Assembly: GCA_902768975.1 (NCBI GenBank)
Contig: CACXMZ010000003.1
Location: 54,941 to 118,940 of the forward strand
DNA from: an uncultured Coriobacteriaceae bacterium
Lineage (GTDB): Bacteria; Actinomycetota; Coriobacteriia; Coriobacteriales; Eggerthellaceae
Direction of reading: 5' to 3'
Length of the DNA stretch: 64,000 nucleotides
The notes under the pieces were generated by a model. It ran no database searches. It saw nothing but the letters and a program-made list of their open reading frames with translations, and was not told where the DNA came from. The translations under genes and the position numbers were made by a program. Shown here in pieces: positions 4,122-50,053 of this stretch (the stretch's first letter is position 1; each line of letters opens with the position of its first letter).

Positions 4122-5324
4122 ATGAACACTGAATTGAAACCGTTCCCTAGGCGTTCATTTGTAGCAGGTGCTGCAACCCTGGGTGCCTTGGCAGTTGCCA
4201 ACCCACTGGTTGCCTTTGCAACCCCTACATCGGCTGAAAAGGAAGCGGAAGCAGACGCCGCCGCAGCTGAAGCTGCTGGTATTGAAGCGTCCGCGGCAGA
4301 AAAACAAGCAGAAGTCGACGCTGCTATGGCAGCGCTTGAAAACATGCAGGTGGCTCTTGACGAGGCCTCGCAGAAGTACACTCAGTGCATCCTTGACGAA
4401 GAGGCGGCACGCGCTCGCATGGAAGAATGCCAGCAGCGCATTGAAGAAAAGACCGCCGAAATGCACGAGCTCCAAGATATCCTCTCTTCCCGAGCGCGCA
4501 ATATTTATAGGCAGGGCAACGATTCGTTTATCGACGTGTTGTTGGGTGCGAATTCCTTCGAAGAATTTGCAAGTAATTGGAGTTTGCTGAACTCCATTAC
4601 CAACCAAGACGCCGACTTGGTGGCGCAGTCCCGTGCTGCCCGCGAAGAGTTGCAGGAAGCCCACGTTGAACTGGAAAAGCAAGAAAAGATTGCTCAGGAA
4701 AACGTGGAAGAGGCTGAAAAGGTTCGCATTGAAGCCGAAGCTATGGTGGCTGAAATGCAGACCATCTATGACTCGCTTTCGTCTGAAGCTGCTGAATTGC
4801 TCGAGCAGGCACGTATCGCCCGTGAAACCGAACAGGCTGCGCGTGCTGAAGCCGAAGAACTGGCTCGCCAGGAACAGGCCGCCCGCGAAGAAGCTGCTCG
4901 TGCGGCTGCAGCGGCTGCTGCGGCTGCAACAACCGCTTCCGGCGGTGGCGGTGGCGGCGGTGGTGGCATCGACCCCACGGGCGAAAGTGGCGGCAGTGCT
5001 GTTTACGAAGGCGGCGGCGACATCGTCAGTCGTGCCTACGCTTGCCTGGGTGCTCCCTATGTGTGGGGCGCCGTTGGCCCCTATGGCTACGACTGCTCGG
5101 GCCTGGTGAGCTACTGCTATTTGGGCACGCATGCTCGCCTGGGTACCACCTATACCTTCATGACTTACCCGCAGGTTTCCAACCCGCAGCCAGGCGACAT
5201 TTGCACGCATTCCACGCACTGCGGAATCTATATTGGCAACGGGCAAATGATCCACGCATCCACCTATGGCGTGGGCGTTATCATCGGCCCAGTTCAAAGC
5301 GGTATGATTATCGTAAGGCCGTAA
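4122..5324 (+). CDS. Secreted coiled-coil NlpC/P60 (C40) peptidoglycan endopeptidase, paralogue of 2472-3605
   Basis: Tat-like signal (PRRSFVAGAATLGALA), coiled coil and an Ala/Gly homopolymer linker (AAAAAAAATTASGGGGGGGGG). The NlpC/P60 core YDCSGLVSYCY...GDICTHSTHCGIY is present. Confidence 0.85.
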   Translation: MNTELKPFPRRSFVAGAATLGALAVANPLVAFATPTSAEKEAEADAAAAEAAGIEASAAEKQAEVDAAMAALENMQVALDEASQKYTQCILDEEAARARMEECQQRIEEKTAEMHELQDILSSRARNIYRQGNDSFIDVLLGANSFEEFASNWSLLNSITNQDADLVAQSRAAREELQEAHVELEKQEKIAQENVEEAEKVRIEAEAMVAEMQTIYDSLSSEAAELLEQARIARETEQAARAEAEELARQEQAAREEAARAAAAAAAAATTASGGGGGGGGGIDPTGESGGSAVYEGGGDIVSRAYACLGAPYVWGAVGPYGYDCSGLVSYCYLGTHARLGTTYTFMTYPQVSNPQPGDICTHSTHCGIYIGNGQMIHASTYGVGVIIGPVQSGMIIVRP

Positions 5325-5329
5325 AACAG

Positions 5330-5360
5330 TCGCCGTCCGAAAGGGCGGCGATATTTTTTT
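5330..5360 (+). terminator. Rho-independent terminator after the second NlpC/P60 gene
   Basis: Stem TCGCCGTCC / GGGCGGCGA with a GAAA loop, followed by ATATTTTTTT. Confidence 0.75.
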
Positions 5361-5479
5361 ACCAAGCCACGCTTTACACCCTGCAAATAGGCAGCTTTTT
5401 ATTACTATGACATTTCGGTTAAATTGCTCGAAATGGGGTGTGTTGTGCTAACATATCGTGCGCTGTAAAAAGCGGGAAA

Positions 5480-5556
5480 CGGGATGTGGCTCAGTTTGGT
5501 AGAGCGCTGCGTTCGGGACGCAGAGGTCGCTGGTTCAAATCCAGTCATCCCGACCA
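5480..5556 (+). tRNA. tRNA-Pro (anticodon CGG), CCA encoded
   Basis: A manual cloverleaf fits. The acceptor is CGGGATG/CATCCCG and the D arm is GCTC..GAGC. The anticodon stem CTGCG/CGCAG holds loop TTCGGGA (anticodon CGG). The T arm is GCTGG-TTCAAAT-CCAGT, followed by discriminator A and CCA. Confidence 0.9.
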
Positions 5557-5604
5557 GTTAACGTAACAAGGGCAAATGCCCTTAGAAAGAAAGTTGGAGG
5601 CAGC

Positions 5605-5931
5605 ATGAAAATCTTAGGTTTGGGTGTACCAGAGCTCGTCATTATTCTTGTAGTGGCTTTGCTTATTTTTGGCCCGAAGAACCTTCCCAAGCTGGGGAGC
5701 GCCCTGGGTAAGACCGTGAAGAACCTTCGTGAAGGCATGGGTTCGGCTGAAGAAGCTGCTGAAGAAGGCGCTGAAGAAGTTGAAGCTGAAGTTGAAGAAG
5801 CTGTCGACGAAGCTGCTGAAGCCGAAGCTGAAGTGGTCGAAGAAGCTGAAGAAGCTGAAACACCCTTTAGCGACCCCAACAAGCCGGCTCCTAAAAAGAC
5901 CGCTAAGAAGGTCGTCAAAAAGGCCGAATAA
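5605..5931 (+). CDS. tatA: Twin-arginine translocase subunit TatA/E with acidic C-terminal tail
   Basis: N-terminus MKILGLGVPELVIILVVALLIFGPKNLPKLGSALGKTVKNLREG is the canonical TatA TM plus amphipathic helix. Confidence 0.9.
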   Translation: MKILGLGVPELVIILVVALLIFGPKNLPKLGSALGKTVKNLREGMGSAEEAAEEGAEEVEAEVEEAVDEAAEAEAEVVEEAEEAETPFSDPNKPAPKKTAKKVVKKAE

Positions 5932-5950
5932 AGCCGCATGACACTCCAGG

Positions 5951-5985
5951 CGCGGCATGTGAAAAAGCGTGCCGCGTTTACTTTT
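5951..5985 (+). terminator. Candidate terminator after tatA
   Basis: Hairpin CGCGGCA...TGCCGCG followed by TTTACTTTT. Confidence 0.5.
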
Positions 5986-6020
5986 GTTCAAACTATTCAT
6001 GATTAGTAAAAGGAAAGAAG

Positions 6021-6491
6021 ATGTCTGAAAGCGATTTTATCCTGACCGAAGAAGGTAAGCAGAAGCTCGAAGAAGAACTGTATTACCTGGAAACCGAAAA
6101 GCGCGCCGAAGTGGGCGAGCGCATACGAGTTGCTCGCGAATTCGGAGATATTTCCGAAAACTCTGAGTATGACGATGCGAAGAACGAGCAAGGCCAGATG
6201 GAAGCGCGTATTGCTGAAATAACCCGCATCTTAGGCGACGCTACGGTGGTTGCTGCCCCCAAACGCTCTACGAAGGTAGGCATTGGTTCGGTTGTAACAG
6301 TTAAGATGGGCGACCAGGAGCGCGTGTTTAGTATCGTGGGCGCGGCTGAATCCGACGTGCGCGACGGCAAGATTTCAAACGAGTCGCCCGTGGGCGCGGC
6401 CTTGCTCGGAAAAAAGAAGGGCGACACTGTTTCGGCTCTCGGTCCTTCGGGCAAAGAAATCGAGATGACCATCGTAGATATTTCTAAGTAA
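6021..6491 (+). CDS. greA: Transcription elongation factor GreA
   Basis: Typical GreA motifs are present: REFGDISENSEYDDAK in the coiled coil and a C-terminal ISNESPVGAALLGKKKGD. Confidence 0.95.
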   Translation: MSESDFILTEEGKQKLEEELYYLETEKRAEVGERIRVAREFGDISENSEYDDAKNEQGQMEARIAEITRILGDATVVAAPKRSTKVGIGSVVTVKMGDQERVFSIVGAAESDVRDGKISNESPVGAALLGKKKGDTVSALGPSGKEIEMTIVDISK

Positions 6492-6495
6492 GTTT

Positions 6496-6521
6496 AACGG
6501 CCCGCCTCAGGGCCGTTTTTA
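6496..6521 (+). terminator. Hairpin plus T-run between greA and lysS
   Basis: AACGGCCC-GCCTCA-GGGCCGTT followed by TTTTAT. It lies only 12 nt before the lysS start, so it may act as a partial terminator. Confidence 0.55.
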
Positions 6522-6532
6522 TAGGAGTAGCC

Positions 6533-8065
6533 ATGACTGAAGAACAAGTTGAAGCAACGCAAGCGCAGGAAACAAGCGCGCAGGCGCCAGAAATCGAAGA
6601 CGATCCGCGTGAAGTGCGCTTGGCAAAGCGTGCGGCCCTTATTGAAGCGGGTGAAAACCCCTACGGGCATGCCTTCCAGTATTCGCACCATGTGGCACAG
6701 TTGCAGGAGCTCTACAAGGATGTGCCTGAAGGCGAAATTACCGAAGATGCGGTTGCTATTGCGGGGCGCATTATGGCCATCCGCGACCAGGGCAAAATTT
6801 GCTTTGTAGTGCTGCGCGAATCGGGCGCCGACATTCAGCTGTTCTGCCGCGTGAATAACTTGGGCGACGAAGCCTTTGCGGCCCTGAAGGACCTCGACGT
6901 CGGCGACTGGATTTCTGCTGAAGGCAAGATCATGCGCACGAAGCGTGGGGAACTTTCCGTGATGGTGGAACGCTTCGAGCTGCTTTCGAAGTCACTGCGC
7001 CCCCTGCCTGAAAAGTTCCATGGTCTGGCCGACAAGGAAACGCGTTATCGTCAGCGCTACGTGGACTTGATTGCCAACCCCGAAGTGCGCGACGTCTTCG
7101 AAAAGCGCTTCAAGATTATGCGAGCTATTCGCAGTTACATGGAAGACGAACAGGGCTATTACGAGGTTGAAACACCGTTCTTGCACAACATTATGGGCGG
7201 CGCCAACGCCAAGCCCTTCATTACGCATTTCAATGCCCTCGACAAGGACTTTTACCTGCGTATTGCCACCGAACTGCCCCTGAAGCGCTTGCTCGTGGGT
7301 GGTTTCGAAAAGGTATATGAAATGGGCCGTATCTTCCGCAACGAAGGCATGGACCAAACGCACAACCCTGAATTCACGACCATCGAAGCCTACCAGGCCT
7401 TCGGCGACTTGAATACCATGATGGACCTGACGCGTGGCATGGTGCAGGCGGCAGCTATAGCGGCCTGTGGCACACTGCAGGTGGAATACCAGGGGCAGAC
7501 CATCGACCTTTCGGGCGACTGGGAAGTACGCACCATGTGCGACCTGGCCACCGAAGCGGTGGGCGAACCTATTAACACGGATCGGAGCCTGGAAGACCTG
7601 CGTGCTATTGCACAGCGCTTGGGTATTAAGGTGGAAGAGAAGTGGGGCACGGGCAAGCTCATCTCCGAAATTTTCGAAGAAGCCTGCGAAGAAAAGCTCG
7701 TGCAGCCCATTTTTGTGACGGAGCACCCGCTTGAAGTAAGCCCCTTGGCCAAGAAGTTGCCGGGCAACCCACAGCTGACAGAGCGCTTCGAGCTGTTTAT
7801 CTGTGGGCACGAGTATGCGAATGCATTCAACGAACTGAACGACCCAGTGGACCAGGCCGAGCGCTTCCATGCGCAGGTAGCTGCCAAGGACTACGACGAC
7901 GAAGCCATGGGCTACGACGCCGACTATATCCGCGCGCTTGAGTATGGCATGCCACCCGCCGGTGGTATGGGCTTAGGTATAGACCGCTTGGTCATGCTGC
8001 TTACCGACAGTGCGTCCATCCGCGACGTTCTTCTATATCCAGCTATGAAACCAGAGGCCGAATAG
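6533..8065 (+). CDS. lysS: Lysine--tRNA ligase (class II)
   Basis: The full-length class II LysRS pattern is present (RYRQRYVDLI, FRNEGMDQTHNPEFT, GGMGLGIDRLVMLLT). Confidence 0.95.
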   Translation: MTEEQVEATQAQETSAQAPEIEDDPREVRLAKRAALIEAGENPYGHAFQYSHHVAQLQELYKDVPEGEITEDAVAIAGRIMAIRDQGKICFVVLRESGADIQLFCRVNNLGDEAFAALKDLDVGDWISAEGKIMRTKRGELSVMVERFELLSKSLRPLPEKFHGLADKETRYRQRYVDLIANPEVRDVFEKRFKIMRAIRSYMEDEQGYYEVETPFLHNIMGGANAKPFITHFNALDKDFYLRIATELPLKRLLVGGFEKVYEMGRIFRNEGMDQTHNPEFTTIEAYQAFGDLNTMMDLTRGMVQAAAIAACGTLQVEYQGQTIDLSGDWEVRTMCDLATEAVGEPINTDRSLEDLRAIAQRLGIKVEEKWGTGKLISEIFEEACEEKLVQPIFVTEHPLEVSPLAKKLPGNPQLTERFELFICGHEYANAFNELNDPVDQAERFHAQVAAKDYDDEAMGYDADYIRALEYGMPPAGGMGLGIDRLVMLLTDSASIRDVLLYPAMKPEAE

Positions 8066-14113: not shown

Positions 14114-14408
14114 TGAAGAGGCTTCATCCCTCTAAATCGCGACCGCTTCCGCTGTTCGTTTTTGGAAGGCGCCTTATGCCCTTGTGGCTCGCTTCGGTTT
14201 TTTAACGGCGAGCAATTGCGCAATTGAAAAGCTTCGAATGGAGCGACGCATGGTTCACCTAACCTATGCATCGGTAAACTCGCTTAATTAGACTAGTCGC
14301 TTTTCTTAACAGCGCTATTGCTTTCGCCTAAAACCTCGACAAAGAGCCAAGGGCATAAGGCGCCTTCTTTGTTTCCCTTAGAGCTTTTAGAGGGATGAAG
14401 CCTCTTCA
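14114..14408. repeat. 295-bp MITE-like nested palindromic element B
   Basis: A perfect 23-nt terminal inverted repeat, TGAAGAGGCTTCATCCCTCTAAA, lies at 14114-14136 and reverse-complemented at 14386-14408. A nested inverted repeat GAAGGCGCCTTATGCCCTTG(GT)GCTC pairs 14165-14190 with 14344-14367. The central core AATTAGACTAGTCGCTTTTCTTAACAGCGC is shared with element A. Confidence 0.75.
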
Positions 14409-14441
14409 GAAGAGCGAATTCTCGTCTATAATCTTTCTTGT

Positions 14442-25027: not shown

Positions 25028-26479
25028 ATGGAAACCAATAACGCACATGCAATGCAGGCTACCGAAGTAGCACCCGATGTCATTGATCCCGCCATGCCGG
25101 ACTTTGCCGTGCATCCAGGGCGTTCGTCCTGGTCGGGCAAGTGGATGTTTATCCTGTCCGCTGCGGCTTCTGCGGTGGGCCTGGGTAATATGTGGCGCTT
25201 CCCGTACTTGGCTGCTAAGTACGGTGGCGGCACCTTTATCTTTACCTACCTGGTTTTGGTGTTCACCTTTGGCATTTCCTTGCTTCTGCTTGAAACTTCG
25301 CTTGGCCGCAAGACGGGGCAGTCGGTTATTGGCGCCTATAGTAGCTTCGGCAAGAAGTACAAGTTTATTGGCGTGCTTTCTGCTGCCATTCCCTTCATCA
25401 TCACCCCGTACTACTGCATTATTGGTGGCTGGGTTGCCAAGTATTGCGTGTCGTATATAACCAATGCCCCGGCCGACATGGCCGACGGTGGCGACTTCTT
25501 CGTGAGTTTCATTACGTCAAACCAGGCGAGTTTTATTTTCATGTTGCTCTTTATGCTTGCGGCATTTTTGATTGTGTCGCTGGGCGTGAAGGGTGGCATC
25601 GAAAAAGCCAACCTGGTCATGATGCCGCTTTTGCTGGTTTCCGCCATTGGCATTGCCATCTATGTGAGTACCTTCCCGGGTGCTGCTGCGGGCATTGCCT
25701 ATTACCTGACGCCCGACTTCAGCAAGTTTTCGCCTGAACTGGTCATTGGTGCGCTGGGCCAGATGTTCTACAGCCTTTCGCTTGCCATGGCCATCATGGT
25801 TACCTACGGTTCGTACCTCAGTAAGAAGGAAAACCTGCCGAAGAGCGTGGCCTGGATTGGTGGCGCCGACCTGCTGGTTTCGACCATTGCGGGCCTCATG
25901 ATTGTGCCTGCCGCCTTTATTGTGATGGGTTCCGCCGAAGCGGTGGCCGCCAAGTCTGGTCCTTCGCTTATGTTTATTACGCTGCCTACCGTCTTCCAGG
26001 AAATGGGCGGCGTCGCTCCCATTATTGGTTTTATCTTCTTCCTGCTCGTGCTGTTCGCAGCGCTTACCAGCGCCATTTCGCTTATTGAAGCCTGCGTTTC
26101 TATTATTGCCGACGGCGCTGGTGTTTCACGCCGCCGTGCCCTCACCATTTCGGTCGTCATCATTGTGATTGCGGGTGTTTTCATCAACCTGGGTTACAAC
26201 GGGCTGTCCTTCATTCAGCCGCTTGGCGAAGGTTCGTCGTTGCTCGACCTGGCCGACTTTATCAGCAATTCGGTGCTCATGCCTATCGTGGCGCTGCTGA
26301 CGGTTATCTTCGTAGGCTGGATTCTTAAGCCGCAGGCTCTTATCGACGAAATCAAGATTAGCTCGCCCTTTGCAGCCGAAAAAGCTTGGGTCATCATGAT
26401 CAAGTATATTGCGCCTGTGCTGCTGGTGGTTATCTTGGTTGCCTACGTGGCCATGCAGTTCGGAGCTTTCTCGGTCTAG
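25028..26479 (+). CDS. Sodium-dependent transporter, neurotransmitter:sodium symporter (SNF) family
   Basis: SAVGLGNMWRFPYLAAKYGGGTF is the NSS signature, and there are about 11-12 TM segments. The start at 25028 follows GGAGG; an alternative start is at 25016. Confidence 0.9.
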   Translation: METNNAHAMQATEVAPDVIDPAMPDFAVHPGRSSWSGKWMFILSAAASAVGLGNMWRFPYLAAKYGGGTFIFTYLVLVFTFGISLLLLETSLGRKTGQSVIGAYSSFGKKYKFIGVLSAAIPFIITPYYCIIGGWVAKYCVSYITNAPADMADGGDFFVSFITSNQASFIFMLLFMLAAFLIVSLGVKGGIEKANLVMMPLLLVSAIGIAIYVSTFPGAAAGIAYYLTPDFSKFSPELVIGALGQMFYSLSLAMAIMVTYGSYLSKKENLPKSVAWIGGADLLVSTIAGLMIVPAAFIVMGSAEAVAAKSGPSLMFITLPTVFQEMGGVAPIIGFIFFLLVLFAALTSAISLIEACVSIIADGAGVSRRRALTISVVIIVIAGVFINLGYNGLSFIQPLGEGSSLLDLADFISNSVLMPIVALLTVIFVGWILKPQALIDEIKISSPFAAEKAWVIMIKYIAPVLLVVILVAYVAMQFGAFSV

Positions 26480-26659
26480 CAGTTGCAGGCTGACGCGCCT
26501 CGGCTGCCACTCTCGCTGTTCGTGAAAACAGCGCATTAAGTGCTGTTTTCACTCATGCGCTTCGTTGCGCTGAACTTAGCTTTTAAAGCATGAATCGCGC
26601 TCACGCGATTCATGATATTTGACGTTCAGAGCCAGCCAGGCACGTCAAACTGCAACTGC
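26479..26659. repeat. Cluster of nested hairpins in the intergenic region before ychF
   Basis: The outer inverted repeat GCAGTTGCAGGCTGACG / CGTCAAACTGCAACTGC matches at 15/17. It encloses two perfect 11-bp stem-loops. One is GTGAAAACAGC-N9-GCTGTTTTCAC at 26522-26552. The other is CATGAATCGCG-CTCA-CGCGATTCATG at 26589-26614. Confidence 0.7.
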
Positions 26660-26688
26660 TATACTCTTCTAGACCAAAGGAGTTAACT

Positions 26689-42807: not shown

Positions 42808-45564
42808 TTATTCGTCATTCAGCTTTCTGCGTCGTGCAGCTACGAGCGCGCAGACCAAGGCTACCATGGCTAAGCCTGCAAGGGCTCCCATTTCTTGCGG
42901 GCCGATGGCATCCGCCGTCCCAGCAGTCGTCTTGCTTGGCGTTGCTTTCTTAATCTTGGGAATGGGCCGCGTTTCCTTATGGCTGGGGTCGTGTTCGCAC
43001 ACGCGGGTTTCTTCACCTTCGGCCGTCGTGGTCGGCTCCTTCGTTACCTTCCAGGGGCCCCACTTGTGGCCATGTGCCTTAATGACCGTGTCGCCGAGGT
43101 CGATTTCCTGGGCCGCCTTTTCGTCGGCGAAGTATATACCGCATATGCTGCACTGCCAGTATTCGGTATGGCCGTCTTCGGTGCAAGTTTCCGGAACAGC
43201 TTCCGTGTGCACAAGCTGGTGCAGATGCGCGGGGTAGGCACTGTCTTTGGCCAGCATCCAAGCCAGGTAGTCTTCGTTGTAGTGGGCCGAAGAAACCTTG
43301 TTTGCCTGCGCAATGAGGGTGGACGCCGTGCGCATGTTGTTTTCCGTGCTGAAGGGCGCGCCTTCGGTGTAGAGGACGAGGTACATGAGCAAGCGCCTCA
43401 GCTGGGTCACATGGTCGCGCATGGTGGTGAAGTGGTTCTGAATGTCCTGGTAGTAGGGGCTTCCGGCGTCATAGCGCCCTGAATTCAGAATGGTCGTTTC
43501 AGCTTGGTTGAGGACCGCTGTCATCCCTAAATCAGCTGCATCATTGATGTCTGTAGCTCCTTCGGGTGCCAAAAGCGTAGTGAGAACACCAATTATTTCG
43601 CTGGCAGCATGCGTTCCGCCATCGGCCAAAGCGTCAACGATAGGCTTATATTTTTTGTCGGAAAGAAGAGAGCCAATTAAACCATAGATGGTCACGCGCA
43701 TCTCATGGGCTTTTTCGGGTGTTCCAGGTTGTTCTTTGTCGCCATCACCATAGATACAGGGTTTTAGTAGTTGGTACAGAGCCACGCGTGCCGTCTTAAG
43801 GCCTTCTTCAGTTGAAGGATCTATGCCACCGCCAGAAAGATTGGCGAGCGCTTTGGCAAGAGCATCGTAGACCATGCCCACTGCTTTTGAGCTAAAGGAA
43901 ACATCGACCGGAGAAGTGCCGTCGTACACCGGATTGCTGCCGTTACCAAGCCACTTCAATGCCAGGTAGATTGCGTCGTCCACCGTGGGTTTGGCTGGTG
44001 CTTTTTCTCCCGTGATGTATTCGAGGGCGTCTATCAGTGCTGCAGCAGCGGCCTCGTTTTCGTCAGTGATGCCCCGTTCTTCTGCCAGGCGTTCCGCCGC
44101 GTAGGCCAGGTAGCTAAACACTACAGCCTTAATGGTGTTGGCACGAGCACCTTCGGGTTGTTCGGGCGCCCAGACATCAAGCGTGGCTAACAACTTTTCA
44201 TTCATGCCAAAGACACCCGCAAGTGCTGTGAGCGTGTCTTGCCAGCCCCCATTGGCGTATTCCGTGTGCGTAGGGGCATGGTAAATGAGTGCTTTAACGC
44301 GCTGCGCAAAAAACTGCGCCTGTGTGATGCCGCTTGCGGGGGGATTGGGGTCGTCAATAAACGAAAGGCTTTGAATGTCGAAGGTCTTGTAGCCAAAGAT
44401 GGTTTCATCGCCTGGCTTTATAGGAGGGTCGCTACTTTCGTTGCCCACATAAGCGATATAGGCAAAGGGGTCCAGGTCCGCGAGCGCTGCCAGGTAAGCT
44501 TCGCGGCTGCCATCGGTGAGTTCGAAGTAATTGCCAAAATGGGTAAAGCCCCAGCTCGATGGGGGGAGAAGCGTAATAAGGTCGAAATCGGGGACGGTGT
44601 TATGAATGCCGGCAAAGGGGCCTTCATGAGGGCTGATGCCTTCACCTGCGTCAGCACCCGTGTATGGCGCGGCGTCGCCCGGCGTGTCATTTTCGTAGCG
44701 CGCGTCTTGGCTGGTGCGGGGGCCGCCTTCCACGGAAAGCAGATCAGCCTTGGTGGCGCCAGATTCCAGCACGTTGGTCGGGGTGGCAAAGGTGTAAGCG
44801 TAGACGTTTTCGGGTGCCACGGTAACGCCGTTCAGGTAATGGCTGGCTCCACCGGCTGCGAAGAAGGCACCAACAAGGTTTGCCAGCGCGCCGCCGCGGC
44901 TGTGCCCGCAGGTCCATACCTTTATGTCGCCAGCAATTCCATGCTCAGACACATACTGCTTCACAAAACGCAGGATTTCGTCGCGGCCAGCCTTGAAACC
45001 TTGGTGGATGCTGCCACTGCCTACGGTGAAGTTGCCATCCCATTCCTGCTTGTAGCCAGCACTGCGCGGAACAATAGCGAGCACGGTGTATTCTTCACCA
45101 GTTTTGGGGTCCTTGATAGTCTTGTGCCCCACCGCCACGCCAGTTGTGTTGGGCATATTTTCCAGGTTATATTCGGCGTTTACGGCCACGTCTTCAAAAG
45201 CAAGCGCTTCGAGGAAGGGAATAACATTCTTGCTGTTGTTGGTATTGTCGCGTTCGTCGGCTGCGGGGTAATAGCTGGTAGACGTTTCGCACGCGATGGC
45301 CGAAAGCGTAGCAAGATGCTGGTTGAAGGTGCTTGCCGGACCCATGAACCATTCGTCGTTATAGGCGAAGGTGTGGGTACGTTCAACGGAAGGCCCGCCA
45401 GGGGTAAAGCCTTCGTTGGAAACAAAGGTGTATTCACCTACGATGGTGGAGCAGTTGGTTTGCGGATTGGCTTCATGGGTCGCAAATGCTGCCGCCGGGA
45501 AAAGGCCAACAACGAGTACGAAAGCAATAAAAAGGTGCAGGCTGCGTTTAATAGTGTGTTTCAT
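42808..45564 (-). CDS. Large secreted class-3-lipase-domain (alpha/beta hydrolase) protein with Cys-rich module and C-terminal membrane anchor
   Basis: After the signal peptide comes the nucleophile elbow VWTCGHSRGGALANLVG (GHSxG). The C-terminal Cys/His-rich segment is CTEDGHTEYWQCSICG...GHKWG...RVCEHD. A TM plus RRRK tail ends the protein. Confidence 0.7.
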   Translation of the reverse strand: MKHTIKRSLHLFIAFVLVVGLFPAAAFATHEANPQTNCSTIVGEYTFVSNEGFTPGGPSVERTHTFAYNDEWFMGPASTFNQHLATLSAIACETSTSYYPAADERDNTNNSKNVIPFLEALAFEDVAVNAEYNLENMPNTTGVAVGHKTIKDPKTGEEYTVLAIVPRSAGYKQEWDGNFTVGSGSIHQGFKAGRDEILRFVKQYVSEHGIAGDIKVWTCGHSRGGALANLVGAFFAAGGASHYLNGVTVAPENVYAYTFATPTNVLESGATKADLLSVEGGPRTSQDARYENDTPGDAAPYTGADAGEGISPHEGPFAGIHNTVPDFDLITLLPPSSWGFTHFGNYFELTDGSREAYLAALADLDPFAYIAYVGNESSDPPIKPGDETIFGYKTFDIQSLSFIDDPNPPASGITQAQFFAQRVKALIYHAPTHTEYANGGWQDTLTALAGVFGMNEKLLATLDVWAPEQPEGARANTIKAVVFSYLAYAAERLAEERGITDENEAAAAALIDALEYITGEKAPAKPTVDDAIYLALKWLGNGSNPVYDGTSPVDVSFSSKAVGMVYDALAKALANLSGGGIDPSTEEGLKTARVALYQLLKPCIYGDGDKEQPGTPEKAHEMRVTIYGLIGSLLSDKKYKPIVDALADGGTHAASEIIGVLTTLLAPEGATDINDAADLGMTAVLNQAETTILNSGRYDAGSPYYQDIQNHFTTMRDHVTQLRRLLMYLVLYTEGAPFSTENNMRTASTLIAQANKVSSAHYNEDYLAWMLAKDSAYPAHLHQLVHTEAVPETCTEDGHTEYWQCSICGIYFADEKAAQEIDLGDTVIKAHGHKWGPWKVTKEPTTTAEGEETRVCEHDPSHKETRPIPKIKKATPSKTTAGTADAIGPQEMGALAGLAMVALVCALVAARRRKLNDE

Positions 45565-45888: not shown

Positions 45889-47589
45889 ATGACTATGGAC
45901 TTTGTAACACCTATAGGCTTCCGCGACATTTTGCCCGATGAAGCCTTGCAACGCGAACAAATTTCCCAGCGCGTTATGGCGCGCTTTTCTGAAGCGGGCT
46001 ACGTGCCCATTGAAACACCCACCCTTGAACGCATGGACGCCATGGATGCGGCAGGCCGCATTCCTGGCAAAACCTTCAAGTTGTTTGACGCAACGGGCGA
46101 ACTGCTGGCCCTGCGCCCCGACGTAACCATGCAGGTGGCACGCATTGCTGCAACGCGCCTGCGCGGCCAGGGTGGTGTGGCGCGTTACCGTTACATGCAG
46201 CGCGTGTTCCGCGACGTGGACCTTCAGTTTGAAGCGCGCGAAATGACACAGATGGGCATTGAATGCATTGGTGAAGGCGGTGCCGCGGCCGACGCTGAAG
46301 TGGTGGGCCTCTTTGCCCAGGCCTTGCAGCTGGCAGGGCTGGAACGTTTTACCATTGCGCTTGGTACGGTGGGCGTGCTGCGCGCCTTGCTTGAAGCTTG
46401 TGAAGCGGAAGGCGCCTGGAAAAATGCTGTGTTGGCGGCTTACCACGCTTCGAACTTTGTGGAACTCGATGAACTATGCACCCAGGAGGGCGTGCCTGTT
46501 GAATATGCCCAGGCCATCGACGCTTTGCCGCGTATCCGTGGTGGGCGTGAAGCCATAGACGAAGTACGTGCCCTGGTTGAACCGCTTGGTTGCGTGGACG
46601 GCTTGGATGCCTTTGCGCAGGCTTTTGATGCCCTGGCAGAAGCGGGCTTGGCAGACGCCCTGTTGGTGGACTTTAGCATCATGAGTAGCTTCGACTACTA
46701 CACGGGCATTGTGTTTGAAGCCTACGCGCCCGGCATGGGCGAACTGCTGGGGTCGGGCGGGCGTTACGACACCATGCTCGAAAGCCTGGGTGCCGACGCG
46801 CGCCCCGCAGCTGGCTTTTCCTTCTACCTAGAACAAGTCATGGAAGCGCGCGAGCAAGGAGTGGAACAGGGGACGGGTTTTTGTTCCACTTCTGCTACTG
46901 CGTCCATCGCGCTTGAAAAAGAAAAAGTGGAACAAAAACCTGTCCCCTGTTCCACAAACCGTCCTCTGCGGATTGCAGTGCCGAAGGGTTCGCTCAACGA
47001 AGGGGCAATCGCTGCCCTTACCGCAGCAGGTTTGGACACGACGGGGTTGGACAATCCCGGCCGCCAGCTGATTATTTCCAACCCAGGCGTGGACTATATT
47101 ATCGTGCGCCCCACCGACGCCCCGGCCTTTGTGGCGCTCGGTGCGGCCGACTGCGGCATTTGCGGCGAAGACAGCCTGGTCGAAACGGGCGCCGACGTGG
47201 TCGAACTGGTCGACTTGGGCTTTGGCGCCTGTCGCTTTATTGTGGCCCAACCCGCCGGTACGACCGAAGCGGTGCAAGAGCGTTACCGCAAGTTGGGTTC
47301 CATGCGCATTGCCACCAAGTACCCCAATATCACGCGCCGCTTTTTTGGGCGCCAGGGCACGCAGGTGGAAATCGTGGAACTGCGCGGCAACATTGAACTG
47401 GCACCCATGGTGGGCATGGCCGAACGCATCGTGGACATTACCGCCACGGGTACCACGCTGCGTGAAAACAATCTTGAAATCGTAGACGAAGTGCTTGAAT
47501 GTACGGCGCGCTTCTTCGCTAACACGGCGGCCTTCCGTATGGACGAACGCGTAGTGGAATTGGCGCGCGCATTAAAGGAGAACGCATGA
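45889..47589 (+). CDS. hisZG: Fused ATP phosphoribosyltransferase regulatory subunit (HisZ) and short-form catalytic subunit (HisG)
   Basis: Roughly aa 1-322 are HisRS-like HisZ (GFRDILPDEA...RYRYMQRVFR). Roughly aa 356-566 are short HisG (LRIAVPKGSLNEGA...RPTDAPAFVALGAADCGICGED...ATGTTLRENNL). A 32-aa linker joins them and is encoded by a palindromic element. There is no stop or start codon between the halves. Confidence 0.85.
   Translation: MTMDFVTPIGFRDILPDEALQREQISQRVMARFSEAGYVPIETPTLERMDAMDAAGRIPGKTFKLFDATGELLALRPDVTMQVARIAATRLRGQGGVARYRYMQRVFRDVDLQFEAREMTQMGIECIGEGGAAADAEVVGLFAQALQLAGLERFTIALGTVGVLRALLEACEAEGAWKNAVLAAYHASNFVELDELCTQEGVPVEYAQAIDALPRIRGGREAIDEVRALVEPLGCVDGLDAFAQAFDALAEAGLADALLVDFSIMSSFDYYTGIVFEAYAPGMGELLGSGGRYDTMLESLGADARPAAGFSFYLEQVMEAREQGVEQGTGFCSTSATASIALEKEKVEQKPVPCSTNRPLRIAVPKGSLNEGAIAALTAAGLDTTGLDNPGRQLIISNPGVDYIIVRPTDAPAFVALGAADCGICGEDSLVETGADVVELVDLGFGACRFIVAQPAGTTEAVQERYRKLGSMRIATKYPNITRRFFGRQGTQVEIVELRGNIELAPMVGMAERIVDITATGTTLRENNLEIVDEVLECTARFFANTAAFRMDERVVELARALKENA
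46861..46955. repeat. 95-nt palindromic element in frame at the hisZ/hisG junction
   Basis: The arms GTGGAACAGGGGACGGGTTTTTGTTCCAC (46861-46889) and GTGGAACAAAAACCTGTCCCCTGTTCCAC (46927-46955) are reverse complements at 28/29. Each arm is itself a small hairpin (GTGGAACA...TGTTCCAC). Confidence 0.85.
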
Positions 47590-48880: not shown

Positions 48881-50053
48881 ATGGGACAAAACCTGCGTCC
48901 AACTAACAAGAATCTTGACGGCGTCGTGCCCTACGACCCGAAGTACTTGCCTGCGCGCCTCATGCTTTCGGCCAATGAAAACCCCGGCGGTCTGCCAACG
49001 GCGGTAGCGGGCGAAGTAATTGTAGCTTTGTCAAAAGTCCAGATGAACCGCTACCCGGACCCCTTGGCTAATGACCTGCGCGACCTTATTGCCCAGCAGT
49101 ATGGTCTCGTGCGCGAAAACGTTATGGTAGGCAACGGTGGCGACGAACTGCTGTTTAACATTGCTTTTGCTTGGGGTGGTGCAGGGCGCACCATGCTCGA
49201 CTGCCCGCCGACCTTTTCGGTCTATGCCGCCAACGCACGCCTTTGCGGCACTACGGTCGTAAACATCGACCGCAAAATTGAACAGGTGACGGGTTTTTGT
49301 TCAAATGACAGAGTGGCAAGTATTGCGCTCGGTTCGGCTCTTGGAGCATTCCCGGTTAATGAAGAAGCTGTCCTCGAACGCGTAGCCCAGGGCGACATCG
49401 ACTACCTCACCATTTGCACTCCCAACAACCCCACGGGCGACCTTTCGAGCGTGGACTTTATCGAGCGCTTGCTCGACGCGACTGATGCTCTTGTTGTGGT
49501 CGATGAAGCCTACGGCGAATTTGCGCCCGAAGGTTCGAGCGTCGTGCCCTTGCTTGCCAAGCACAAAAACCTGGCAGTTCTTCGCACACTTTCCAAGGCC
49601 TATAGCATGGCGGGCGTGCGCTTGGGTTACTTGCTGGCCAACCCTGAAGTCATTACGGAATTGCAAAAGGTGCGCCAGCCTTATTCGGTCGATTCGCTTT
49701 CGCAAACGGTGGCGAAAGAAGTGTTTAAGTTCCTGGACTTGTTCGAAGCTCGTACTGCCTTGCTCGCTTCGGAGTGCGACCGCGTGTTCGAAGCGCTCAA
49801 TGCCATGGACGGCGTGGTGGCCTATCCGAGCGCCGCGAACTATATTCTGTTTAAGCTCGAAGAGGCCGACGCGGGCGTGGTGTGGCAGAAGCTCTACGAC
49901 GCAGGTGTGCTGGTACGCGACTTTTCGGCAAGCCCGTATACGCCTAACAGCCTGCGCGTGAGCATGGGCATCCCTGAACAAAACGACGCGTTCCTGGCAA
50001 CACTTGCGTCAATATTGGAAGAAGAAAAAAGCAACTCAGAGCTCCAGGGCTAA
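48881..50053 (+). CDS. hisC: Histidinol-phosphate aminotransferase (carries an apparent ~24-aa in-frame insertion)
   Basis: LSANENPGG, CTPNNPTG, VVVDEAYGEF and the PLP-lysine motif LRTLSKAYSMAGVRLGY are present. The insertion IEQVTGFCSNDRVASIALGSALGA lies near aa 134-157. Confidence 0.93.
   Translation: MGQNLRPTNKNLDGVVPYDPKYLPARLMLSANENPGGLPTAVAGEVIVALSKVQMNRYPDPLANDLRDLIAQQYGLVRENVMVGNGGDELLFNIAFAWGGAGRTMLDCPPTFSVYAANARLCGTTVVNIDRKIEQVTGFCSNDRVASIALGSALGAFPVNEEAVLERVAQGDIDYLTICTPNNPTGDLSSVDFIERLLDATDALVVVDEAYGEFAPEGSSVVPLLAKHKNLAVLRTLSKAYSMAGVRLGYLLANPEVITELQKVRQPYSVDSLSQTVAKEVFKFLDLFEARTALLASECDRVFEALNAMDGVVAYPSAANYILFKLEEADAGVVWQKLYDAGVLVRDFSASPYTPNSLRVSMGIPEQNDAFLATLASILEEEKSNSELQG
49278..49304. 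repeat. Half-copy of the hisZG junction palindromic element inside hisC
   Basis: TTGAACAGGTGACGGGTTTTTGTTCAA shares a 23-nt core (22/23) with the 46861 arm. The downstream similarity continues (..ATTGCGCTCG versus ..ATCGCGCTTG). Both copies are read in the same frame, giving the shared peptide EQxTGFCS....ASIAL. Confidence 0.8.

Follow-up and report, generated by a model that had tools for sequence, protein, structure and literature searches.

We analyzed a 64,000-nt stretch of DNA (hereafter, the window) from an uncultured Coriobacteriaceae bacterium of the family Eggerthellaceae (assembly GCA_902768975.1, contig CACXMZ010000003.1, positions 54,941 to 118,940 of the forward strand), in which the gene hisZG, encoding a fusion of HisZ and HisG, carries a 95-nt palindromic element in frame between its two halves. 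Judging from sequence comparison, each arm of this element is a copy of a dispersed 27-nt palindromic unit that resembles repetitive extragenic palindromes (REPs). We consider it very probable that the element is a repeat of the REP type or of the REPIN type (a head-to-head doublet of REPs forming a hairpin), spread by a mechanism that would recognize hairpins, and that it is tolerated in frame in disordered loops of the encoded proteins. A preliminary description, made from the letters of the window alone, had proposed that the element fused two formerly separate genes; the comparisons below contradict that proposal, and point to insertion of the element into a linker that already existed.

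The two arms of the element (46861-46889, GTGGAACAGGGGACGGGTTTTTGTTCCAC, and 46927-46955, GTGGAACAAAAACCTGTCCCCTGTTCCAC, each 29 nt) are reverse-complementary at 28 of 29 positions and lie 37 nt apart, as previously described and as confirmed by direct reading of the sequence; a repeat search lengthens the arms to 36 nt at 92% complementarity, and the bases at the sole mismatch of the 29-nt arms can pair as G.U in sense RNA. The chance expectation of the 23-nt core in the window is 0.00. RNA of positions 46841-46975 is predicted to fold into one long stem at -73.6 kcal/mol, compared with -37.4 +/- 3.5 kcal/mol for shuffled sequences (z = -10.3; 0 of 200 shuffles as stable), in agreement with the stem-forming potential of the mRNA suggested earlier. 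Each arm is moreover a hairpin by itself, with the structure GTGGAACA-N13-TGTTCCAC, a feature that had been missed. The doublet together with the unit-flanking bases amounts to 32 added codons, encoding the peptide VEQGTGFCSTSATASIALEKEKVEQKPVPCST (HisZG residues 325-356), and an AlphaFold model of HisZG built from the homologue alignment (mean predicted local distance difference test score (pLDDT) 76.6; predicted template modelling score 0.71) has a pLDDT below 50 at residues 327-356. The same sequence, without any difference, is present in a Logan assembly made independently (L003, ERR3220191), so that the element is no assembly artefact. An intrinsic terminator on the sense strand was rejected, there being no T-run after the hairpin; only the antisense unit 2 is followed by TTTTTCTTTT, flagged as terminator-like on the minus strand. 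There was no support for an internal promoter at the element, and comparison with Rfam gave only sub-threshold matches to miRNA precursors, that is, to generic long hairpins, and no matching RNA family.

The preliminary description had suggested searching for the core, and this search recovered a third copy in the window, within hisC, together with copies dispersed at 14 genuine loci in species genomes and on four metagenome contigs, the latter all from one sample. Alignment of 32 units outside the his genes defines a sharply bounded 27-mer with the consensus T(G/T)GAACAGGGGACGGGTTTTTGTTC(C/A)A and unconserved flanks, which occurs in two subfamilies, TGGAACA...TGTTCCA and TTGAACA...TGTTCAA. 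The genomes were scanned with the exact pattern GAACAGGNGACNGGTTTTTGTTC in one genome per species (185,579 species), which gave 15 loci in all. Matches were found on 11 contigs of 'uncultured Eggerthellaceae bacterium Red_deer_4_mag_2', in the Eggerthellaceae metagenome-assembled genomes (MAGs) RGIG4361 and RGIG5804, in an Atopobiaceae MAG and in a Coriobacteriaceae MAG. A match in an 'Opitutaceae' MAG (L017) was attributed to chance, since it has two core differences, lies inside a 747-codon frame and lacks palindromic flanks, and since a pattern with 21 specified bases should match ~0.3 times by chance in 2 x 596 Gb. All genuine matches come from the ruminant or deer gut (deer, sheep). When up to four mismatches were allowed, 40 units were present in the loci collected up to then, and ~50 overall when the metagenome contigs were added. 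Viral contigs contained no match to the unit pattern and gave no sign of an association with phages. We rejected a CRISPR repeat, since there are no regular direct arrays, and an operator for a dimeric repressor is unlikely, since the 13-nt interior is conserved yet asymmetric and the units are placed after stop codons with a strand bias. In the literature we found no description of this 27-nt family or of palindromic repeats in Eggerthellaceae.

Units are found alone, paired head to head as doublets, or in tandem. Doublets are also present in loci L004, L010, L013, L015, L021 and L024, where the spacers differ from that of the window in length and sequence; doublet spacers measure ~7-37 nt, and those of different loci have unrelated sequences. 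The placement of the units is strongly oriented: where a frame of 100 codons or more ends no further than 45 nt away, 16 units read G-loop-first and one in the opposite orientation, typically 0-10 nt from the upstream stop codon. Transcribed G-loop-first, the unit is predicted to form an 11-bp stem (4 G.U pairs in addition to 7 Watson-Crick pairs) that closes a loop of 5 nt, at -9.2 kcal/mol, compared with a stem of only 7 bp at -6.2 kcal/mol for RNA of the complementary strand. All six frames of the consensus unit are free of stop codons (WNRGRVFVP, GTGDGFLF and EQGTGFCS on one strand; WNKNPSPVP, GTKTRPLF and EQKPVPCS on the other). Two side observations concern the ends of the unit. In the TGAACA subfamily, the first bases of the unit (TGA) apparently serve as the stop codon of the upstream frame at L023 19-41 and L024 4444-4528, giving a stop-to-unit distance of -4. 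Truncated unit heads (GGAACAGGG, GGAACAGGGT) are tandemly stacked just 5' of complete units at L016 5914-5990 and at L004 1030-1080 and 7470-7560 (for example, GGAACAGGGTGGAACAGGGTGGAACAGGGGACGGG...), which suggests that copying slipped or aborted on the unit's 5' side.

The host gene is a single uninterrupted open reading frame (ORF) without a stop or start codon between its halves, as stated earlier and as borne out by both the ORF listing and the Pfam domains: a tRNA-synt_His domain of the HisZ type (PF13393) at residues 10-317 and a HisG domain (PF01634) at residues 407-563 of the 566-aa protein. Chains from the PDB align to residues 5-332 (HisZ type) and 356-564 (HisG-short), none of these HisZ/HisG chains covering residues 333-355, and the position given to the palindrome, between the HisZ-like and HisG-like parts, matches these boundaries. 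With a HisRS-like regulatory module and a short catalytic HisG module that has no C-terminal regulatory domain, the chain ending at residue 566, the protein has the composition of a HisZ-HisG(short) ATP phosphoribosyltransferase (ATP-PRT). Hetero-octameric ATP-PRTs (1z7m, 1usy, 5m8h, 8oy0) comprise the same two modules, but as separate subunits, whereas the Eggerthellaceae protein is one polypeptide with a variable linker.

This fusion is not a peculiarity of the window. PF13393 and PF01634 are found in one protein of 528-655 aa in all of the best 120 homologues (P0001-P0120), which come from Eggerthella, Gordonibacter, Raoultibacter and many MAGs across Eggerthellaceae. In the homologue alignment both domains are highly conserved, while the linker between them (...FYLEQVM.A to RPLRIAVPKG) is hypervariable in length and sequence, often being of low complexity with repeated stretches. 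A linker related to the element is present only in the window protein, P0001 and P0002 among the aligned homologues; the members of the next clade (P0003-P0010, 75-79% identity) have short linkers, for example AFAAAENGSSSQ, and in the outgroups, at 69-81% identity, the linkers are likewise short and show nothing of the element. At the DNA level, no 27-nt unit was found in the hisZG linkers of the outgroups L019 and L020. The preliminary description had recommended such an alignment with relatives, and orthologous fusions without a palindrome are indeed what it revealed, so that the claim of a palindrome-driven fusion fails. Because all 120 homologues are fused and the outgroup linkers are element-free, the element is not the cause of the fusion; on this comparative evidence, the fusion predates the element and was already present in the ancestor of the Eggerthellaceae, and the element was inserted into an existing linker. 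A single-chain HisZ-HisG(short) ATP-PRT is thus the rule in Eggerthellaceae. In the solved HisZ and HisG-short structures of the PDB the two are always separate chains, and the literature that we found on HisZ/HisG fusion and his-gene evolution does not describe a single-chain fusion.

In-frame translation of the palindromic element, as noted earlier for hisZG, extends to at least two more genes, giving at least three in total: hisZG, hisC and leuS (the features of the window are collected in Table 1). The third core copy of the window, which the preliminary description had missed, lies at 49280-49302 within hisC and is read in the same frame as in hisZG, as (I)EQVTGFCS. It belongs to an in-frame insertion that is missing from the outgroup HisC proteins (346-356 aa, versus 390 aa in the window), and in an AlphaFold model of HisC, also built from the homologue alignment (mean pLDDT 91.1), the only segment with a pLDDT below 50 comprises residues 137-150. 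According to the two models, both window insertions are located in structurally permissive, low-confidence segments. A second, decayed arm was sought in the hisC insertion, where the similarity was too weak to call. The leuS copy is a near-perfect head-to-head doublet in frame at positions 4907-4987 of L015 (JAFUCE010000130.1), a locus from MAG RGIG4361, the same MAG as L002 (see below). With the peptide ...VVPLNRGRVSVQSDNELQAVEAIEQKPVPCSTTEY..., it corresponds to ~28 extra aa relative to LeuRS of T. thermophilus (1h3n), immediately ahead of TTRPDT, the motif leading into the editing domain. Its second arm is again read as IEQKPVPCST, and its unit 1 is read in another frame.

We also observed that the residues ASIAL are encoded at the same offset after the unit in the hisZG spacer (46899-46913) and in the hisC insertion (49319-49333). 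The two coding stretches are identical at 8 of 15 nt and use different Ser codons (TCC vs AGT); L002 does not conserve the motif, and P0121 has ASIEP in its place. The agreement could be a coincidence, could be left over from a longer element common to both sites, or could reflect a constraint at the peptide level. No candidate with three shared 5-residue words was found when the element-encoded 40-mer was compared with a set of 5.8 billion proteins.

Table 1. Features of the window related to the palindromic element (positions are those of the window)
Feature	Position	Strand	Remarks
hisZG	45889..47589	+	Single unbroken ORF, 566-aa HisZ-HisG(short) fusion; host of the palindromic element
Head-to-head doublet, two REP-like units and spacer (REPIN-like, 95 nt)	46861..46955	.	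Translated as residues 325-356
Direct repeat GTGGAACA, copy 1	46861..46868	+	From the linker comparison of the window with L001
Unit 1, TGGAACAGGGGACGGGTTTTTGTTCCA	46862..46888	+	Equals the family consensus (0 differences); G-loop-first on the sense strand; nhmmer 35.1 bits
Spacer, 37 nt (CTTCTGCT...GAAAAAG)	46890..46926	.	Codes for part of STSATASIALEKEK; not common to the other doublets of the family
Direct repeat GTGGAACA, copy 2	46927..46934	+	Right endpoint of the putative 66-nt deletion in L001
Unit 2	46928..46954	-	1 difference from consensus (G to A, own strand); 32.4 bits; followed by TTTTTCTTTT on the minus strand
hisC	48881..50053	+	Histidinol-phosphate aminotransferase, 390 aa; PF00155; host of unit 3
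In-frame insertion in hisC, ~22-24 codons (IEQVTGFCSNDRVASIALGSALGA)	49277..49348	+	From HisC alignments; unit at its 5' end
Unit 3, TTGAACAGGTGACGGGTTTTTGTTCAA	49278..49304	+	TGAACA subfamily; 1 difference from consensus; 25.5 bits

The linker of hisZG varies even among the closest relatives of the window. In L001, whose hisZG is 98% identical in aa (aligned columns) and 94% in nt, the linker contains the single unit GTGAAACAAAAACCCGTCCCCTGTTCCAC and is exactly 66 nt (22 codons) shorter, with the reading frame kept. The missing 66 nt, comprising unit 1 and the spacer, are bounded by GTGGAACA direct repeats at 46861 and 46927, which are present because each arm is self-palindromic, and slippage or hairpin-stimulated deletion between these repeats would be the simplest reading of the loss. 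L002 (86-89% identical; 89% aa) carries a doublet that is collinear but has decayed, AATGAACAGGGGACTGA--TTCCAC ... GAGCAAAACCTTGCCCCCTCTTCAC, and a decayed hisC unit, TTGAGCAAGGGACGGCTTTACCTTCGT, with 8 of 27 positions differing from the consensus. Three further metagenomes (L025-L027) share 94-100% nt identity with the window over ~9.4 kb (40.9-50.3 kb); their hisZG is fused as well, with a completely different, unit-free linker (EASSSAVLPNSEQVAAAASCRS), and their hisC unit is identical to that of the window. Identity to L025 is 89-93% over 46300-47300 (76% over the linker) versus 96-100% elsewhere, which suggests a recombination tract of ~1 kb carrying an alternative linker allele. Thus, there are three linker alleles (doublet, single and none) in near-conspecific genomes, and the long hairpin is dispensable in nature, because L001 keeps one unit in frame and L025-L027 keep none in the linker. 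Two additional observations were made on L025. In its unit-free linker we noticed CTGTTC...GAACAG and a stretch agreeing with unit 2 at 15 of 27 positions, a merely suggestive resemblance for which we claim no decayed unit; and its hisZG, at 5076-6709, was split in gene calling into overlapping genes of 249 aa and 313 aa, suggesting a frameshift in the HisZ part that is either real or an assembly error.

Palindromic repeats lying in frame in protein-coding genes of Rickettsia, the Rickettsia palindromic elements (RPEs), were reportedly described by Ogata et al. in 2000, and the preliminary description had likened the hisZG element to them. The comparison is apt as an analogy of in-frame palindromic insertion: the 27-nt family is palindromic, is found in frame in housekeeping genes at permissive positions, is open in several phases, and has orthologous copies that are decayed in some lineages. 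However, there is no sequence homology to RPEs, which are also mentioned in two other papers (PMC3733652, PMC1458961) and end in CGTC (PMC3733652), a tag that the 27-nt family lacks. In addition, the unit measures 27 nt and the doublet 95 nt, as opposed to ~100-150 nt for RPEs, the hosts are free-living gut Actinomycetota instead of obligate intracellular Alphaproteobacteria, and most copies of our family are intergenic.

The family also behaves like the REPs, which are located mostly downstream of genes, show G.T pairing, form predominantly head-to-head dimers and have occasional intragenic copies (PMC3733652). The 27-nt unit is likewise an imperfect palindrome within the 20-40 bp size range, with numerous copies that are dispersed and for the most part lie outside genes, a short way downstream of coding regions; it forms a strand-specific G.T-paired hairpin, occurs in head-to-head dimers, tandems and clusters and occasionally within genes, shows no target-site duplication, and varies strongly in copy number between related genomes. 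By the same token, the window element, two inverted units with a short spacer forming one long hairpin, resembles a REPIN, the head-to-head REP doublet (PMC3116915). REPs and REPINs are mobilized by REP-associated tyrosine transposases (RAYTs), in Proteobacteria and other phyla (PMC3116915, PMC3733652); Actinomycetota, to which the class Coriobacteriia belongs, are not among the host phyla listed for GTAG or CGTC REPs (PMC3733652). The in-frame insertion of small repeats has already been documented (PMC3733652, PMC5896051, PMC3184786), for instance for miniature inverted-repeat transposable elements (MITEs) such as the QMITEs of Coxiella (PMC5896051) and for the small mobile sequences of enterobacteria (PMC3184786). 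Our family shares with these the properties of a small, non-autonomous repeat with inverted termini that is sometimes found inside ORFs, adding amino acids, but it differs from them in that there is no target-site duplication at the doublets in the window, L010, L013 and L015, in that its 'terminal inverted repeats' are self-palindromic units also found singly, and in that no parent insertion sequence is known.

Membership in the repeat family, the ancestral fusion, the in-frame insertion relative to outgroups, the polymorphism among near-conspecific genomes and the location in low-confidence loops are the observations on which the REP/REPIN-like explanation is built. According to this explanation, a 27-nt unit dispersed among Coriobacteriia of the ruminant gut (in Eggerthellaceae and, as variants, in MAGs of Atopobiaceae and Coriobacteriaceae) would usually settle in intergenic DNA, 0-10 nt past a stop codon and oriented for an 11-bp, G.U-containing stem in the transcript. 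Its mobility would depend on a hairpin-recognizing mechanism (RAYT/IS200-like or similar), as its distribution suggests. Survival inside a gene, at a permissive place, would be possible because all six frames of the unit are stop-free, provided that the length of the copy or doublet is a multiple of three. In the window, a doublet landed in the disordered, hypervariable linker of an already fused HisZ-HisG and a single unit in a surface loop of HisC, and the inserts are translated as presumably neutral passenger peptides.

Several results weigh against this explanation. The family lacks the GTAG or CGTC terminal tag of REPs, the flanks of the 32 aligned units being unconserved (GTGG is present in a minority of units, where it overlaps the stem), and the spacers of its doublets are not conserved between loci, so that the doublet is unlike a replicating unit such as a REPIN. 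No Y1_Tnp/RAYT domain was found in ten unit-flanked ORFs from ~150 kb of repeat-bearing genomes, which encode RlaP, PIN, Metallophos, GNAT, ApbE, aldo/keto reductase or M15 domains, or none; and the 64-kb window contains only three units, all intragenic, without any intergenic copy, intact or decayed. Furthermore, the three units of the window are surprisingly well preserved, only 2 of their 81 nt differing from the family consensus. At fourfold sites, the window and L002 differ by 0.51-0.55 (Jukes-Cantor ~0.89), a depth at which these sites are saturated and dating is limited; the expected per-lineage difference is ~0.33, giving a binomial P of ~4e-12 for 2/81 if the insertions predate the window/L002 split. 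A purely passive passenger without recent re-insertion or gene conversion does not explain this preservation, which might instead result from nucleotide-level selection, from short-patch conversion by other copies or from re-insertion at old sites. However, both the near-trichotomy of the window, L002 and L029 and the recombination tract at the linker weaken strict dating.

The same preservation is the main argument for a functional cis-element, according to which the units or the long hairpin in hisZG and hisC are kept by selection and may act as a ribosome-pausing structure, as a site for RNase III or for decay control in the his mRNA, or as the site of a 27-mer-binding protein. Two differences in 81 nt contrast with a fourfold divergence of ~52% between the window and L002, where the orthologous units have decayed by ~30% and acquired indels, roughly at the neutral rate, and where the non-unit parts of the insertions have also strongly diverged. 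Even against the shallower window/L001 split, two or fewer differences in 81 nt have a P of ~0.024, four more metagenome assemblies share the hisC unit without a difference, and the stability of the predicted stem is extreme. On the other hand, unit 1 and the spacer are lost in L001, the otherwise 94-100% identical L025-L027 have no unit in the linker, identical units occur in unrelated contexts (intergenic, leuS), the L002 copies decay freely, and the sense hairpin has no 3' T-run and hence is no intrinsic terminator; recent re-insertion or short-patch conversion could also account for the preservation, and the ~1-kb recombination tract undermines any simple dating. We therefore do not take the preservation of the units as evidence of function, and consider selection for such a cis-element unlikely. 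Slightly less likely still is the proposition that the hisZG and hisC units are actively maintained, whether by selection or by unit-specific re-templating or conversion, as domesticated cis-acting regulatory sites of the his operon; if this were true, they could serve, for example, as an RNA hairpin or a protein-binding site that tunes how the message is translated or decays between the two modules, HisZ and HisG.

The other alternatives fare worse. A selected peptide module EQxTGFCS...ASIAL, for example a docking or modification motif common to the two histidine-pathway enzymes, would agree with the shared frame of the units in hisZG and hisC and with the ASIAL four residues after the unit in both; but the motif is lost in L002 (LEQGTALPSSSAQQAAE in HisC, EQGTDSTLSARLAHQ in HisZG) and altered in P0121, both segments are predicted to be disordered, the leuS unit 1 is read in another frame, and the conservation is at the nucleotide level, including synonymous positions, which makes this alternative very improbable. 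Hardly any credence can be given to two further scenarios. The element could have arisen locally, by in-situ inverted duplication or template switching in a fast-evolving linker, unrelated to any dispersed element, as the hypervariable, low-complexity and repeat-containing linkers of the family would allow; however, identical 23-27-nt units are present at dozens of unrelated loci in several genera, including hisC of the window. Alternatively, the palindrome could have entered between hisZ and hisG while these were still two genes, removing the stop and start codons and so creating the fusion, in keeping with its location exactly between the two parts and with the lack of any such codon there; this conflicts with the universality of element-free fusions among the homologues, with the element-free linkers of the outgroups, and with the near-identical relatives L025-L027, in which an element-free linker is found in a fused gene. 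Finally, chimeric reads can yield long perfect palindromes, yet the probability that the palindrome is an assembly or sequencing artefact is practically negligible, since the identical L003 sequence comes from another run, L001 and L002 from other samples carry related alleles, and the frame is intact. The preferred reading thus remains a REP/REPIN-like repeat tolerated in frame.

Some further features of the window were noted in passing. A module of ~115 nt at 14118-14410 (minus strand), matching L014 4565-4853, is 90% identical between genomes that are otherwise ~70% identical. It contains an AGGTGAA resembling a ribosome-binding site and a small ORF, MRRSIRSFSI... (25 aa in the window), and is bracketed by long inverted repeats in the window and by two inverted REP-like units in L014; it matched no tRNA and no Rfam family, and could be a small toxin, leader peptide or small RNA locus. 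Over ~600 nt at 43500-44100, identity to L025 is 48-68%, with flanks at 94-100%; this region lies within a 918-aa ORF on the minus strand (42808-45564), which has a weak Lipase_3 match and a C-terminal tail resembling a membrane anchor, and represents a hypervariable segment of a large putative surface protein. Two inverted repeats, at 1352-1556 (30-nt arms, 87% complementary, 145 nt apart) and at 26474-26664 (27-nt arms, 85% complementary, 137 nt apart), are unrelated to the 27-nt family.

These results document a short palindromic repeat family in gut Coriobacteriia, within the Actinomycetota, that is without the GTAG/CGTC tags by which the REP superfamilies are catalogued, and the in-frame readthrough of such repeats in essential genes (hisZG, hisC, leuS) when they are placed in disordered loops, a parallel in free-living gut anaerobes to the phenomenon that made the RPEs of Rickettsia notable. 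They also correct a tempting misreading, according to which two genes were fused by the element, and, with regard to annotation, such repeats may mislead gene callers and inflate linker diversity. The doublet, single and unit-free linkers constitute a natural allelic series, which is usable as a test of the effect of a ~30-bp coding stem on translation, mRNA decay and genome stability.

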